From assembly GCF_003018235.1 (NCBI RefSeq), contig NZ_CP027437.1: a stretch of DNA of 64,000 bases; one strand, written 5' to 3'. Of the stretch, positions 19,429 through 24,218 are shown in pieces. The notes beneath the pieces are model-generated. The model searched no databases and was not told the origin of the DNA. It saw only the letters and a list, made by a program, of their open reading frames with translations. This DNA comes from Escherichia coli (GTDB lineage Bacteria > Pseudomonadota > Gammaproteobacteria > Enterobacterales > Enterobacteriaceae). How positions within the stretch are numbered: the first letter of the stretch is position 1; each line of letters begins with the position of its first letter. The translations under genes were made by a program, and so were the position numbers.

Positions 19429-19661
19429 GCTGCACCTCCGAGATGCTTCATGTTTTTTCCGGAGCAAAAGGCTATAAGCGGCATACTGATGCGGTAATTA
19501 CGGCCCAGCGGTTCACAAATCACCTTCTGACATTCACGGTCAACCAGGCTAACACGTAGAACATGCCCTGCAGGCGTGGTGTACCACTGCCCAACTGTAG
19601 GAATTGATGTTTTTTTACGCTGAAGCAAACGGCAAATATTGAGGATCAACGGATTAAGCAT
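19425..19661 (-). CDS. hypothetical protein (78 aa)
   Basis: ORF between initiator and upstream gene; no recognisable motif. Confidence 0.35.
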   Translation of the reverse strand: MLNPLILNICRLLQRKKTSIPTVGQWYTTPAGHVLRVSLVDRECQKVICEPLGRNYRISMPLIAFCSGKNMKHLGGAA

Positions 19662-20490
19662 GACGATGCCCTCCGTTGATATTCAGGAGACGGTGAATAT
19701 GAAAATTAGCCTTATCCGCCAAACGAATACGTTCAGCCTGCAAGTTAAGAAGTGTTTCTACCAGAACCTGATGCGCCTGCGGATCCGAAAGAGTTACCTT
19801 GCGCAGAGCACGTAGTGCAGTTGTTACATAACTGAGTTTATGTAAGTCTTCATCATTCAGACGAGTGAGGGCTGGGACAGTAGCCATGATGGCAGCCTCC
19901 TTGATCGGTGAAATACTTCCACCACCGGAAACGCCAATTTCGCTGGTGGTGAACTGAACGGGGTTGGCGTAACCGGTGATCAAGGAAACCGGCGCATCTT
20001 TCGATGCCCCCGCCCAGCCCACCATAACTTTGATGTGAGCAAATGCGGACGATAAAAAAGACGCTGGCGCGTCATATATCGCCTTGATCAATTCCAGGAC
20101 GCCAATCCCGGCACCCGCTTTATAAGGTGCCTGAACAGTGTAACGTCCCGGAATGGCAGAATCAATGTGCTGGTGGTCCTTCACACTCAACAAAATCACG
20201 CCTGAATTTCCACAAAGGACTAAAGCACTCATGCGGGTAGTCTTTGCGAAGATAGATAACGCGCTGTGTTTCTGGCTCCCAACGAATAACATGGACATAA
20301 AGCCCTCTTCCGTCACGAAACCAGCGGTTAAGTTCCTGCACAACTCGCCCCCCACAGTCAGGTAAAGTTCTCTGTGGTTACTTACAGCCAGGTGATTTGG
20401 TAATCTGCATTCATGCCGTAACAACAGGTGTTCAGCGACGCTGACCACCAGCTGTTGCGACAAACGGTTATTTGCCGTTAAACTGTTCAT
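19654..20490 (-). CDS. hypothetical protein (278 aa)
   Basis: long coherent ORF in early-right operon; family not recognised. Confidence 0.5.
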   Translation of the reverse strand: MNSLTANNRLSQQLVVSVAEHLLLRHECRLPNHLAVSNHRELYLTVGGELCRNLTAGFVTEEGFMSMLFVGSQKHSALSIFAKTTRMSALVLCGNSGVILLSVKDHQHIDSAIPGRYTVQAPYKAGAGIGVLELIKAIYDAPASFLSSAFAHIKVMVGWAGASKDAPVSLITGYANPVQFTTSEIGVSGGGSISPIKEAAIMATVPALTRLNDEDLHKLSYVTTALRALRKVTLSDPQAHQVLVETLLNLQAERIRLADKANFHIHRLLNINGGHRHA

Positions 20491-21038
20491 GCGTTAGTTT
20501 CTCCACAGACACAAAACGCCACGACGCCCGGAGCTGCACACTCGCGGGCGTCACTACTTTCTGAAACGCAAAAGATTTTGTAGACCAGTGCTGCATGCTC
20601 CTGGAGCTTCGAAATTGACAGATACAACTCATCATTAATTGCTGTCTGCTCGTGTGGCTCCACTACCCCATCTTCGATTGCCGAACGAATCTGCTTTGAG
20701 TAACTCCCGATCTGTTCGATGACTTCCAGCAGGCGCTGGTTTATATCGGCGTTCTCTACTTCCTCAATTTCAGGAAGCGATACAAACACCCCACCTGCAG
20801 ACTGTGCGACAGCATCCGCAATGTAGTGAGTGCCAGCCGCGCGCTGTAAAATCATTGCCCATCCCAGCGGGAAAATCTGATCGCCATCTGCACGAAGGCG
20901 GTTGAATAAAGCGTTCTCTGTTACATCCAGCCACTCAGCAGCTTCAGCGTAACCCCCCGGCAACGCCGCGATAGTTTTTCTGACAGCTTTCACGTACCAC
21001 TCAGGCTGTTTTTCTACTTTCCAGTGATGCTTACCCAC
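20487..21038 (-). CDS. YdaT-like / CII-analogue protein (start uncertain; ORF extends to 21143)
   Basis: directly downstream of cro-like gene; AAGGAG RBS then GTG at 21038. Confidence 0.35.
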   Translation of the reverse strand: MGKHHWKVEKQPEWYVKAVRKTIAALPGGYAEAAEWLDVTENALFNRLRADGDQIFPLGWAMILQRAAGTHYIADAVAQSAGGVFVSLPEIEEVENADINQRLLEVIEQIGSYSKQIRSAIEDGVVEPHEQTAINDELYLSISKLQEHAALVYKIFCVSESSDARECAAPGVVAFCVCGETNA

Positions 21039-21060
21039 GGCTATCTCCTTAAAACTGTGG

Positions 21061-21309
21061 TTACTTTTCATCTGATGAGTCTTTAATCTTTTGAAAAATA
21101 TCTGGACGTAATTTTTCTTTTGATACGCCAGTGGTCTTTTCAATGAAAATCGAGAGCTTTGCAGGGGGACGCTTTTCTCTGTTCAACCAGTTCCAGACAT
21201 GTTGTTGCTTTACTAAATGACCGCTGCTGGCTGTGAGCTTCCGAGCCAATTCTGATTGACCACCAGCCAGAGCGATTGCCTCCGATAAGGCTAATTGCTC
21301 AGGTGTCAT
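21061..21309 (-). CDS. Cro-like HTH repressor (YdaS family)
   Basis: LAGGQSELARKL...VKQQHVWNW...EKTTGVSKEKLRPDIF; AGGAGA RBS; divergent from cI. Confidence 0.7.
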   Translation of the reverse strand: MTPEQLALSEAIALAGGQSELARKLTASSGHLVKQQHVWNWLNREKRPPAKLSIFIEKTTGVSKEKLRPDIFQKIKDSSDEK

Positions 21310-21324
21310 AGCTTTCTCCTTTTT

Positions 21325-21420
21325 CGGTAGTTAAGTTGTTACGAGATGCAAGAATACAACATTAACAACTTTTATCACAACTTTTAGGTGTTGGAAAGCT
21401 AAAACATAAAGTTGTAACCT
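21325..21420. promoter_or_regulatory. OR-like operator/promoter region between cro and cI
   Basis: repeated AAGTTGT / ACAACTT half-sites and ACAACTTTTAGGTGTTGG motif. Confidence 0.5.
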
Positions 21421-21444
21421 CATCAGAAAAGAGAGGGATATGTT

Positions 21445-22131
21445 GTGAAAACACTGGCAGAACGATTAAAGATAGGTAGAGAGAAAGCTGGCATGAGCCA
21501 AGCTCAACTAGCTGAAAAAATTGGACTTTCACAACAATCTGTAGCCAAAATAGAGAATGGAGAAACTCTACAACCGCGCAAAATTAAAGAAATTGCAAAA
21601 ATTTTAGGTGTATCACAAAAGTGGTTACAACTTGGTATTGAAGACAACGCATCCATACCTGATCTTGTTGTAAAAGAAGCAGAAAGCACCGCATTAGACC
21701 CCGATATTTTCGTAAACATTCCTGTTTTAGATGTCGAGTTATCGGCTGGTAACGGATGTCTGGCTGAAATAGTTGAATCAGCTATTGACTGGTTTCCGTT
21801 AAGAAGAGCAGATTTGAGAAAATCTGGCGTATGTGCATCTAATGCCAAGATCGTAAAAATCTGGGGGAACAGTTTATTACCGGTTCTCAATAATGGAGAT
21901 CTTGTTGCCGTTGATATTTCTCAAACCGTTCCTATTCGTGATGGCGATCTTTATGCCGTACGAGATGGTGTATTGCTAAGGGTTAAAATACTTATCAACT
22001 TACCTGACGGTGGCTTGATTCTTAGAAGCTTCAACAAAGATGAGTACCCAGATGAAATACTCACCTTTGAGGATAGACGAGCCAGAATTCATGTTATAGG
22101 TAGGGTATTCTGGTCATCGCGAACTTGGTAA
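21445..22131 (+). CDS. CI-type repressor (HTH_XRE plus S24 LexA-like peptidase domain)
   Basis: N-terminal HTH MSQAQLAEKIGLSQQSVAKIENGE; C-terminal GNSLLP ... RVK; GTG start after GAGAGGG RBS. Confidence 0.85.
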   Translation: MKTLAERLKIGREKAGMSQAQLAEKIGLSQQSVAKIENGETLQPRKIKEIAKILGVSQKWLQLGIEDNASIPDLVVKEAESTALDPDIFVNIPVLDVELSAGNGCLAEIVESAIDWFPLRRADLRKSGVCASNAKIVKIWGNSLLPVLNNGDLVAVDISQTVPIRDGDLYAVRDGVLLRVKILINLPDGGLILRSFNKDEYPDEILTFEDRRARIHVIGRVFWSSRTW

Positions 22132-22653
22132 TGCGTCGAAAAGCATTTCTTCAGAAATAATTTTAAGTTTTGCACCATTATCATCCCGATAAGATATAGC
22201 CTTTTCGATCTTCCTTCCGTGACTTGAGAATTTCCAATCACGGGAGGAAAGCGTCCCTATTACTAAAAAATCCAACTTTTGAGTAATTCCACTACTGATG
22301 TTCCCACCAGCATTTTTAATCAAATTTTCAACTACGGCTCTCTTTCCTGCAACAAAAGTGCCTGTAAGACAATAGGTTTTACCCTCTAACTCTATCGAAG
22401 CCCCTACATCAATAGGCAGCCTGGTCGCCAAACCATCCACCACCCCACTTTCCAAGTCACATCCAGTGAAGTCTACTAATGCCTTATGTAGAGTTAAACT
22501 CTCATCTTCAGTAATAACACCATCTTTAAGAATTTCCTTTACAAGTGCATAAAGGTTTTTTCCTGGGTAGTTGTTCCTCAAAGCTCCATTTTGCTCAAGC
22601 CACCAATTAAGATATCTTATTTCTTCTTGAGTTAAGTTTCGATCAGCAATTAA
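22114..22653 (-). CDS. in-frame continuation after TGA: two TerB-like motif copies plus C-terminal BRCT-like domain (no ATG; TTG at 22581)
   Basis: frame open from the TGA at 22654-22656 to 22114; LIADRNLTQEEIRYL and ILKDGVITEDESL motifs; BRCT-like GKTYCLTGTF...DFLVIG. Confidence 0.45.
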   Translation of the reverse strand, partial: LIADRNLTQEEIRYLNWWLEQNGALRNNYPGKNLYALVKEILKDGVITEDESLTLHKALVDFTGCDLESGVVDGLATRLPIDVGASIELEGKTYCLTGTFVAGKRAVVENLIKNAGGNISSGITQKLDFLVIGTLSSRDWKFSSHGRKIEKAISYRDDNGAKLKIISEEMLFDALPSSR

Positions 22654-23004
22654 TCATTTACATAGTCCATTAAGTAAATGGACATCTACATCTTTGGAGT
22701 AAAAATCAATTTCAGGGATATCAAGAATTTCTCTCTGTATTTGAAGAAGGCTATTTTTAAGGTCATCACGTTCTTCTGATGTGATTATTCCATCCGCAAG
22801 AATATCCGATACCCGTGCTGATAGACTTTTTATAACTCCATTATTGATAATCTGCTTTGCTTCAAGTAACCATGTATCTAAGTAAAGAACCTCCTCTTCA
22901 CGGACAACTCCATCTGCAATGATTCCATCAATGATGCTAATCAAGTTAGCAAATAACTTGTCCCGGTTCTGTGTGTAATTAAAAGCGTAAAGCGCGTCTT
23001 CCAT
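22654..23004 (-). CDS. TerB-like repeat protein (116 aa), ends at in-frame TGA
   Basis: ATG 23004 with AGGAGG RBS; two copies of I-[IL]-A-D-G-[VI]-x-x-E-E motif. Confidence 0.6.
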   Translation of the reverse strand: MEDALYAFNYTQNRDKLFANLISIIDGIIADGVVREEEVLYLDTWLLEAKQIINNGVIKSLSARVSDILADGIITSEERDDLKNSLLQIQREILDIPEIDFYSKDVDVHLLNGLCK

Positions 23005-23060
23005 ACAACCTCCTTTTTTTGATAATCCTTGCACTCCTTGACTACACGTTCAAACTACAT

Positions 23061-23115
23061 AAAGTTGTTGACAACATTCAAAACAACAACCAGATTACAA
23101 CTTAAAGGTGTTGAG
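23061..23115. promoter_or_regulatory. OL-like operator cluster
   Basis: AAAGTTGTTGACAACATTC palindrome-like site and ACAACTTAAAGGTGTTGAG, matching the OR motif. Confidence 0.45.
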
Positions 23116-23184
23116 ATGACGAACAGGCAGGACGCCCACGAAGTAGCCGTCTGGGGCATATGAAGTCCAGGATGATTCGTTAGC

Positions 23185-23215
23185 AACAAAAAAGCGCCCT
23201 ATAGGACGCTTCGCT
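23185..23215 (-). terminator. intrinsic terminator after periplasmic-protein gene
   Basis: minus-strand AGCGTCCTATAGGGCGCT followed by TTTTTT. Confidence 0.45.
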
Positions 23216-23237
23216 CTTTAACAATCTGGATGACTTA

Positions 23238-23750
23238 TTACTCAGATTTGAACTTTGGTTCTGGCAAAAGAGGAGGAGTTGAGTCCTCGAATCGTAGCCA
23301 GTGCTCCCAGATATCGTGGGATTGTAATTCCAGAAGACCAATTTGACGTGATGCAACTGCAGTGCCAGCTATAGTTCCTCCTGCATAATCAACCTGGACG
23401 GACTTTGACGCTTTCTCAATTAATTCTGTCCAAGCTTCACTTTCCGCGTTAAAAGAAGCAGTTAATTCCTGCAGACGCTGTGGATCATCCTTGTTGTCTT
23501 GTTTCAAACGATTCAGGGCGGCCACCGAATACTTATTCTTAACCCAGCTAACCTGAGCTAACTGAACTCTCTGACAAGCGTCCATATCAGTAGTTGTTTC
23601 CTGAGGCATATCAAAGCAGGAAATAAAAAAAGTCTCAACACCATCATTTAGACTACTGCTCGGCTGGTTCAAAGCATCAGAAGCATTGGATGCTATCGGT
23701 ATTATCAGTGCTACCGACAGAATCAAACGTTTAACATAAATCGCTCCCAT
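23238..23750 (-). CDS. secreted/periplasmic protein (signal peptide; possibly DUF1311/LprI-like)
   Basis: ATG 23750 with GAGGGG RBS; N-terminal signal peptide; two Cys. Confidence 0.5.
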   Translation of the reverse strand: MGAIYVKRLILSVALIIPIASNASDALNQPSSSLNDGVETFFISCFDMPQETTTDMDACQRVQLAQVSWVKNKYSVAALNRLKQDNKDDPQRLQELTASFNAESEAWTELIEKASKSVQVDYAGGTIAGTAVASRQIGLLELQSHDIWEHWLRFEDSTPPLLPEPKFKSE

Positions 23751-24218
23751 TTAATTATCCCCTCTAAGAACAGAGTCATCCAGATTATCTGAATCCTTGT
23801 TGTTGGGGAATAACCAGGCCCACCTCGCCTGATGTGGCTAAAAGCAGGCACATAACAGCTAAGTATTTTCAACCAGAGAGAATCCTTAGCGTTGTGGTGA
23901 ATGCGGCTCAGCGCACGCGGGCTAAGGTTGAGGCTGACAGTCGACCTTCTGTGGATACCCACCCGCCTGGTGTGCAACCTTCGCCAGGCACCGGGAGGCA
24001 CCCGGCACCACAACTTTATGCTGTGTATAGTCCTGGCGGTACCAGTTTGTACCCTTGCTTCCGGCTGGTACCGCTCTTTTTACAAAACAGAGAAGAGCAT
24101 CACCGGACGACGGGCTCATAACCCAATCCACCCGGGCGGCTGCCACCGCAGGTGTTCTTCTCTGTTTTGTGGAGAAACCAACCGACCTTGCAGGGTCGAT
24201 ATGATGAGGAGCAGCAAA

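Follow-up and report, generated by a model that had tools for sequence, protein, structure and literature searches.

Putative OR and OL operators built on an ACAAC-N5-GTTGT palindrome in an SfV/e14-like prophage of Escherichia coli, with a BRCT-domain gene beside OL

The stretch of Escherichia coli contig NZ_CP027437.1 (assembly GCF_003018235.1) analysed here, 64,000 nucleotides long and called the window below, takes in part of a lambdoid prophage of SfV/SfII/e14 type. Its immunity region harbors a minus-strand gene for a cro-like protein (the counterpart in E. coli SCU-124 is annotated as a transcriptional regulator), the divergent gene of a CI repressor, and the gene of a BRCT-domain protein that converges on cI. 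To the right come a short non-coding stretch that is conserved, a minus-strand LprI-like gene followed by its own terminator and, farther on, yfdP/Q/R-like genes on the plus strand followed by xis/int. Two gaps, one between cro and cI and the other next to the start of the BRCT gene, hold clusters of ACAACTT half-sites. We consider it probable, at about 0.78, that these clusters are the right and left operators (OR and OL) of a lambdoid, SfV/e14-like prophage of an uncharacterised immunity type, and that the BRCT gene is not repressed from them. Sites, promoters and their activity were read from sequence alone, with transcription starts inferred from the promoter hexamers; coordinates are collected in Table 1.

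A preliminary description of this DNA had quoted several strings from the two gaps and proposed that one motif is common to both. All the strings are found in the window where they were said to be, and the common motif is borne out, match statistics placing it far from chance. ACAACTTTTAGGTGTTG lies at 21377-21393 and ACAACTTAAAGGTGTTG at 23097-23113, AAAGTTGTTGACAACATTC occupies 23061-23079, AAGTTGT/ACAACTT half-sites occur at 21333-21339, 21365, 21377 and 21409-21415, and three blocks are common to both gaps in direct orientation. A motif search finds the 17-mer ACAACTTWWAGGTGTTG exactly only at 21377 and 23097 in the window; with up to three mismatches, the 17-mer pattern gives 3 matches in the 64 kb against 0.43 expected, all of them inside the two clusters. 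ACAACTT itself has 15 copies on both strands of the window, six of which fall within the two gaps totalling 256 bp (Poisson P ~6e-11). What had to be corrected is the repeat unit, described as 17 bp: the unit is 15 bp, and the trailing TG in OR belongs to the -35 hexamer of PRM, the promoter of repressor maintenance.

The operator would then be a 15-bp imperfect palindrome, ACAAC-N5-GTTGT, with two full sites in OR (x1 and x2) and two in OL (a and b). Allowing one mismatch, this pattern has 8 matches in the window against 2.1 expected, a number reached by none of 100 shuffles, and four of the eight are the OR/OL sites. With a site matrix built from relatives only, the same four sites rank first in the window, at 21.6-23.5 bits. 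A fifth strong match, ACAACTTTATGCTGT at 24010-24024 (19.7 bits), is probably no operator for this CI, and the match probably coincidental, because the 15-mer is identical in the heteroimmune phage SfV. It belongs to a non-coding plus-strand stretch (23861-24083) that is almost identical in SfV, 15-mer included, and that scores 44.5 bits against Rfam STnc100, whose gathering score of 47 it narrowly misses.

The comparison with related loci gives this picture its depth. Twenty-three genomic loci encoding CI relatives were retrieved, and 12 sequences were compared: the window, E. coli SCU-124 (L002; other loci are cited by such numbers where needed) and ten retrieved loci from Citrobacter, Serratia, Rosenbergiella, Tatumella, Proteus and Providencia, whose CI is 58-84% identical to that of the window. 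The related immunity regions set against the window are 11, from at least seven genera, on loci of ~10 kb each. ACAAC(A/T)T clusters occur at OR and at one second place in 11 of 11, with a further cluster only in L006. That second place is ~1.6 kb downstream of the cI start in loci with the BRCT gene, and just after cI in the two that are without it (L009 and L012). The cro-cI gap is strikingly conserved around ACAACTTTTAGGTGTTGGAAAGCTAAAACATAAAGTTGTAA in the 12 sequences, and the sites are kept across CI proteins down to 58% identity, the intervening spacers having fully diverged. A spacing scan for inverted ACAAC-Nk-GTTGT over the OR/OL regions of the 11 loci yields 43 matches at k=5 and 0-2 at any other k, except for k=8, which is an alternative reading of sites ending in GGTGTTG. 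One OL site (OL-a) shows perfect palindromic arms, ACAACATAAAGTTGT, in Proteus and Providencia, and OL-b, ACAACTTAAAGGTGT, occurs inverted as ACACCTTAAAGTTGT in L004-L007 and L011.

Two other ways of dividing the clusters were discarded. A 16/18-bp reading, CAAC-N8-GTTG, which the 17-mer suggests, accounts for the GGTGTTG sites alone and not for the OL-b copies that are inverted in L004-L007 and L011, whereas the 15-bp reading fits all four site classes; and ACAAC at 23071-23075, as a middle OL site, belongs to the variable part after TTGACA and is not kept in relatives. More distant CI relatives (L013-L020, 46-50% identical, recognition helix VSQQAINKIE) keep (A/T)AGTTGT half-sites ~190 bp upstream of cI, mostly as same-strand repeats ~20-30 bp apart. 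The half-site appears to be older than the site architecture.

Concerning the repressor, Pfam recognizes an HTH_3 domain (56 bits) and a Peptidase_S24 domain (55.4 bits). Among 29 CI homologues Q30, Q31, S143 and K181 are invariant and A101-G102 nearly so, where S143 and K181 are the serine and lysine of the S24 family and A101-G102 is the Ala-Gly cleavage site. Of the solved structures, the one nearest to residues 1-81 is the DNA-binding domain of the 434 repressor (1per_L, E 6.4e-14), and the alignment of both proteins runs gapless over the recognition helix (LSQQSVAKIENG versus TTQQSIEQLENG), with QQS in both. In phage 434, OR and OL contain three 14-bp sites each, which are conserved at their outer 4+4 positions (ACAAT-N4-ATTGT) and contacted directly at the five outermost bases of either side (PMC1636474). 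Given the homology to the 434 repressor, an ACAA core in the present sites is expected. The 14-bp operator as such, ACAA-N6-TTGT, has no match in the window and can be ruled out, the enriched spacing being that of a 15-bp site.

The likeness to 434 hence lies in the DNA-binding domain, the Gln-Gln-Ser at the start of the recognition helix, the ACAA core of the half-site and the imperfect palindromes at OR and OL. The sites here differ in being one base pair longer, with 7 bp between ACAA and TTGT, and residue 35 of CI is a Lys where 434 has Gln33. There are two full sites per region plus orphan half-sites, and Cro belongs to the YdaS family, not being a homologue of 434-Cro. The mechanism is predicted to be 434-like, but it is not imm434; a repressor with the same QQS recognition helix on a site longer by one base pair makes for a natural comparison with that of 434.

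The promoters are consistent with this assignment. Their hexamers are kept at fixed spacing while the spacers vary, which is the pattern expected of real sigma-70 promoters. At OR, site x1 overlaps the -35 of the early promoter PR by 4 nt and that of PRM by 1 nt, its centre standing at ~-40 from the inferred PR start and at ~-41 to -43 from the inferred PRM start, and x2 covers the PRM spacer and -10; the two starts, near 21344 (minus) and 21425-21427 (plus), are ~81 bp apart. In relatives the PR -10 is TATAAT (L003 and L004; Citrobacter) or TATGAT, TATATT or TATCAT, and a promoter scan calls PR in L003 as TTGTGA-18-TATAAT. The PRM -10 position reads TGTAAT/TAATCT, TAATGT, TAAAAT or TAGTCT, and a leader of ~20 nt that carries a ribosome-binding site follows, up to the GTG start of cI. 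At OL, the centre of OL-a lies at ~-42 from the inferred start of the early promoter PL and at ~-43 from that of a predicted BRCT promoter, starts that, near 23103 (plus) and 23018 (minus), are ~85 bp apart. Ten of 11 relatives have TAAATT or TAGATT as their PL -10, and PL is called by the scan (TTGACA-17-TAAATT) in L002 and L003. On the window itself the scan missed PR, PRM and PL, since one hexamer of each has fewer than four of six matches. PL faces right, with its back to the BRCT gene, and transcription from it would enter a structured leader that is conserved.

Beside the full sites there are conserved orphan half-sites, which adjoin the -10 hexamers of PR and PL. OR reads ACAAC-N4-ACAAC-N7-(site x1) and OL reads ACAAC-N6-(site OL-b). 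Direct repeats with N4, N6 and N7 count 21, 9 and 13 instances, respectively, in the OR/OL regions of the 11 loci, and the N4 repeat is not above chance over the whole window. A further half-site, at ~+5 to +11 from the inferred PR start, has ACAACT(T) kept at its position in 12 of 12 loci and forms a full site in L008 and L009 (right half GGTGT or GTGGT); in E. coli its right half is non-consensus, and the site matrix gives the window copy less than 8 bits. The orphan half-sites may be weak, one-sided sites that stand in for OR1/OL1, or else sites to which Cro binds preferentially. An extra ACAAC-N4-ACAAC pair is seen ~40 nt downstream of the PL start in two Providencia loci (L010 6680-6700 and L012 5930-5950), repeating a module of their own OR.

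Support also comes from the mosaic boundaries. In heteroimmune phages that have the same backbone, among them SfV, SfII and SfIV, similarity to the window is confined to the sequence left of cro and to that from ~23115 rightward, so that the right-hand junction falls immediately after OL-b. SfV has a repeated motif of its own, GTACC, in both OR and OL, and its PL (TTGACA-N17-CATAAT) stands at the equivalent place, just before the same downstream leader. Where cI differs, so does the operator motif, which is what one expects of operators.

Table 1. Genes, putative operator sites and predicted promoter elements of the immunity region, from left to right (positions in the window; bit scores of operators from the relatives-only matrix).
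Feature	Position	Strand	Remarks
ymfL/CII-like gene (Phage_CP76)	left of the cro-like gene	minus	
cro-like gene, 82 aa, YdaS family helix-turn-helix (HTH)	21061..21309	minus	open reading frame (ORF); Pfam YdaS_toxin 55.7 bits
cro-cI gap, 135 bp, first motif cluster	between 21309 and 21445		
ACAACTT half-site, possible weak third OR site	21325..21339	minus	11 nt downstream of PR -10
PR -10 TATTCT	21351..21356	minus	18 nt from -35 in the window
two orphan ACAAC half-sites, ACAAC-N4-ACAAC direct repeat	21356..21369	plus	PR spacer and -10 region
PR -35 TTGTGA	21375..21380	minus	overlaps OR-x1; TTGT(G/T/C)(A/G) 17-18 nt from -10 in 12 loci
operator OR-x1, ACAACTTTTAGGTGT	21377..21391		OR2-like; 23.5 bits
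PRM -35 TTGGAA	21391..21396	plus	GTTGGA invariant in 12 loci
operator OR-x2, AAAACATAAAGTTGT	21401..21415		OR3-like; 23.2 bits; 24 bp centre to centre from OR-x1
PRM -10 region	21413..21420	plus	TGTAAC after 16 nt or TAACCT after 18 nt; inferred
cI repressor gene, 228 aa, GTG start	21445..22131	plus	HTH_3 + Peptidase_S24 (Pfam)
BRCT-domain gene, 296 codons	22114..23004	minus	ORF, Pfam BRCT, phrog_3989
gap of 110 bp, second motif cluster	right of the BRCT gene start at 23004		
BRCT-promoter -10 AAGGAT, predicted	23025..23030	minus	17 nt from -35
BRCT-promoter -35 TTGAAC, predicted	23048..23053	minus	begins directly after OL-a
operator OL-a, ACTACATAAAGTTGT	23054..23068		between PL and BRCT-promoter -35 hexamers; 21.6 bits
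PL -35 TTGACA	23068..23073	plus	TTGAC(A/T/G) in 11/12 loci; TTGGCA in L007
orphan ACAAC half-site	23086..23090	plus	immediately 5' of PL -10; in 10/12 loci
PL -10 CAGATT	23091..23096	plus	17 nt from -35; first base non-consensus in the window
operator OL-b, ACAACTTAAAGGTGT	23097..23111		covers inferred PL start (~23103); 23.5 bits
conserved structured PL leader	23117..23186	plus	common to heteroimmune phages; mosaic junction just left

Taken together, the locus shows these features of a lambdoid switch: divergent cI and cro with back-to-back promoters, a repressor with HTH and S24 domains, and partly symmetric sites at two regions. In lambda, CI at OR2 blocks PR and activates PRM from ~-42, and OR3 serves autorepression. 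By analogy, a CI dimer would most likely bind the 15-bp imperfect palindromes; at the OR sites it would shut off PR, which as proposed would turn cro off, stimulation of PRM could come from x1, and a limit on the synthesis of CI itself from x2. With OL-b over the PL start and OL-a touching the PL -35, the early-left operon (the leader, yfdP/Q/R and on to xis/int) would be blocked. The BRCT gene would be read leftward from a weak promoter of its own, TTGAAC-N17-AAGGAT, back to back with PL, and OL-a, just upstream of the -35 of that promoter at ~-43, would occupy the place from which lambda CI at OR2 activates PRM.

Where it accompanies cI in relatives, the BRCT gene is 55-82% identical and always converges on cI; the 3' overlap, 18 nt in the window (22114-22131), measures 6-18 nt in all of them. 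In the window it has an in-frame TGA at 22654-22656, a GGA (Gly) codon in E. coli SCU-124, where the gene is intact (296 aa); upstream in-frame ATGs were rejected as starts, as they are not conserved. No terminator is seen between the convergent genes, and if both are transcribed in the lysogen their transcripts would be antisense at the 3' ends. Of the label TerB/BRCT that the preliminary description had given the product, the second half holds, PF00533 scoring 27.9 bits against a cut-off of 21.3, and the first does not: Pfam TerB (PF05099) has no match for the E. coli protein and reaches 15.3 bits, against a cut-off of 24.4, in a Providencia homologue. The AlphaFold model (pLDDT, the predicted local confidence, 81.8) has a helical N-terminal part and a C-terminal BRCT fold, and a fold search of the PDB with it returned only BRCT matches, the domains of RFC1, XRCC1 and LigA. 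The N-terminal part is all-helical with DGxI/V-x-x-x-E repeats, and a distant relation to TerB is still conceivable for it. The protein falls in phrog_3989, and it matches the PADLOC candidate PDC-S48 weakly and only partially. In Vibrio phage K139 and in Pseudomonas phages Marin and PG1 a homologue directly follows cI on its strand; that of K139 is orf2 (33% identity over 95%), and the K139 record annotates a lysogenic operon with a mapped lysogenic start site.

Upstream of the gene, TTGA(T/A)(T/C) is found in 10 of 10 BRCT-carrying loci, and (A/G)AGGAT exactly 17 nt from it in eight of the ten, with unrelated spacers; neither hexamer is present in L009 and L012. AGGAGG follows downstream of the -10, and then the ATG at 23004. 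The spacing from OL-a to the -35 is fixed in all ten loci. Counted from the inferred start, the predicted promoter has the layout of lambda PRM, i.e. a weak sigma-70 promoter with an operator at ~-43 that abuts its -35. This position of OL-a suggests activation or no effect, rather than repression. Operator geometry, together with the homologues that follow cI, makes expression of the BRCT gene in the lysogen likelier than its repression by CI.

How far CI acts on this promoter is a matter of degree. That CI at OL-a activates the gene in the lysogen has, to our judgement, somewhat less than an even chance, and that the gene is expressed there unaffected by CI at OL-a is a more tentative idea. 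The broader proposal that OL is a second PRM-like switch, at which CI bound to OL-a both helps to silence PL and activates the BRCT gene, is likewise put forward tentatively. If it is true, a candidate exclusion or defence gene would be hard-wired to the lysogenic state and lost on induction, cro, cI and the BRCT gene would form a three-gene immunity cassette moving together among Enterobacterales prophages, and the orphan half-sites in direct repeat would indicate a mode of binding that goes beyond simple dimers on palindromes.

The alternative that fares best accepts the clusters as OR and OL but takes the BRCT promoter to be constitutive: OL-a would serve PL only, its adjacency resulting from the packing of divergent promoters into 85 bp. 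This is possible, if doubtful. L009 and L012, which are without the BRCT gene and its promoter hexamers, have OL-a unchanged, and OL-a is hence needed for PL regardless of the gene. On the other side, the weak conserved -10 (AAGGAT or GAGGAT) suggests a promoter that needs help, and the operator-to-35 spacing, fixed in ten loci, matches the x1/PRM layout of the same phage.

Direct repression of the BRCT gene by CI at OL, which would keep it silent in the lysogen and turn it on at induction like an early lytic gene, is unlikely. It draws on the proximity of OL-a, only 50-64 bp upstream of the start codon, on the crowding of the region with repressor once OL-b is occupied too, and on an ACAAC over the BRCT ribosome-binding site (23005-23009) that is present in the window and in L002. 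That ACAAC is not kept in relatives, though, and no conserved operator lies within -35 to +1 of the predicted promoter, OL-a ending where the -35 begins. The homologues of K139, Marin and PG1 stand after cI on the same strand, in K139 in the lysogenic operon, and so are probably expressed with the repressor; and the BRCT gene lies between cI and OL, the slot of rexAB in lambda, not in the early operon. The preliminary description had read the clusters as OR and OL and had made the BRCT gene, whose upstream region the second of them overlaps, repressor-controlled. Its first part is upheld by the conserved clusters, the PR/PRM/PL hexamers and the mosaic junction. As to the second, OL-a does adjoin the BRCT promoter, but repression is the least likely form of control, since OL-a lies outside the core promoter and PL is directed away, and the gene may be repressor-controlled only insofar as CI activates or tolerates its expression.

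A more radical view, in which the ACAAC arrays are bound mainly by the YdaS-type Cro, by the YmfL/CII-like regulator or by CI in a direct-repeat mode, and in which the palindromes are not the functional unit, has in our opinion a slim chance. The direct repeats (-N4-, -N6-, -N7-) are enriched and conserved beside the palindromes, and a symmetric dimer leaves them unaccounted for; yet the inverted k=5 arrangement, with its 43 instances, is by far the most enriched, and it suits a dimer of the 434 type, the recognition helix and the ACAA core both being kept throughout the family. Moreover, the Cro of lambdoid phages normally uses the CI operators, so that binding by another protein and binding by CI are compatible. 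Chance, or neutral duplication of one intergenic segment, could leave 20-nt blocks like those at 21374 and 23094 (85% identical, direct orientation), but is effectively refuted by sites conserved while spacers diverged, and motif and spacing statistics also speak against chance.

Several observations weigh against the preferred assignment of the clusters to OR and OL with an unrepressed BRCT gene. Only two full sites are seen per region, where three are typical of lambda, 434 and P22; two of the window sites have GGTGT as right half, OL-b of E. coli SCU-124 reads GGTAT, and the direct-repeat half-sites, with periods of 9, 11 and 12 bp, are not fitted by a simple model of dimers on palindromes. 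The PRM -10 register is ambiguous, and the BRCT-promoter -10, AAGGAT, is poor and replaced by other hexamers in two of ten loci. The window copy may be partly decayed, to judge from its PL -10, CAGATT, and from the stop that interrupts its BRCT gene. Among the deposited phage genomes searched the closest CI is only 44.5% identical, and a literature search covering this repressor, BRCT genes of immunity regions and PDC-S48 found nothing relevant.

Set against the known systems, the OR described here resembles that of lambda in having x1 at the -35s of PR and PRM, x2 24 bp off over the PRM -10, and PR and PRM starts ~81 bp apart, and by its sequence CI is of the S24 self-cleaving type with Ala-Gly, Ser and Lys, as in lambda. 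Unlike lambda, it has no obvious equivalent of OR1, orphan half-sites taking that place, its cI starts with GTG after a leader that includes a ribosome-binding site, and there is a second PRM-like arrangement at OL, which lambda is without. A passenger gene adjoining cI recalls lambda rexAB and the K139 order cI-orf2-glo-int; in contrast to K139, the BRCT gene is here inverted, overlaps cI and has its own promoter beside OL. Gene order and flanks are those of SfV, SfII and SfIV, with ymfL on one side and the PL leader and yfdP/Q/R on the other, but cI, cro and the operator motif differ from SfV, which is without a BRCT gene between cI and PL.

The switch is of a very well known kind, of which this member has so far gone uncharacterised, and OL adds a modest twist. 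The operators are ordinary phage biology, and neither they nor the BRCT layout overturn current understanding. What they offer is an operator code, ACAAC-N5-GTTGT, and a promoter layout for an immunity group defined by sequence alone, of use in prophage annotation and in predicting superinfection immunity groups, and the BRCT gene, with a predicted promoter sharing OL-a, could provide a small, testable case of a passenger gene coupled to the repressor. Concerning distribution, 47 of 5,426 complete E. coli genomes (~1%) carry a ~98% identical region (at least 80% of 21000-23300 covered), and the group also occurs in Citrobacter, Serratia, Providencia, Proteus and other genera, though it is missing from the phage genomes that have been deposited.

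The PL leader is of interest in its own right. This ~65-nt element begins ~10-20 nt after the inferred PL start and is 80-98% conserved in at least 48 records of phages that differ in cI, among them SfV, SfII, SfIV, ST64B, YeP1-3, ZF40, mEp237, mEp460 and Klebsiella phages, being unannotated in most of the records listed; copies lie at L001 3630-3700, at ~1195-1270 in L028, L029 and L030, and at ~6680-6750 in L003. RNAalifold on seven copies gives 17 pairs, six of them with compensatory changes. It corresponds to no Rfam family; identity with HK022 putL was rejected for lack of sequence similarity to the HK022 PL region, and a 15-codon ORF at 23117 was dismissed as not conserved. We regard it as a candidate processive-antitermination or other leader RNA. 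Farther along the strand of the PL transcript, at 23212-23224 (plus), stands CGCTCTTTAACAA, which by the boxA consensus we take to be a perfect boxA-like sequence, inside the terminator-hairpin tail of the minus-strand LprI-like gene; GACGCTCTTTAACAA is also found downstream of OL in a Serratia locus (L005). It is a possible nutL boxA, for which no boxB hairpin was identified.

Two minor points concern the neighbourhood. The LprI-like gene (23238-23750, minus, 170 aa, phrog_7681, weak Pfam match) has its own terminator at 23212-23191 and lies antisense in the PL transcription unit, where SfV has orf33 on the plus strand instead; it looks like a moron. On the other side of the immunity region, downstream of the cII-like gene, Rfam matches isrK, an Hfq-binding small RNA, at 20054-20130 on the minus strand (64.2 bits, gathering score 50), inside or antisense to a 278-aa ORF at 19654-20490.

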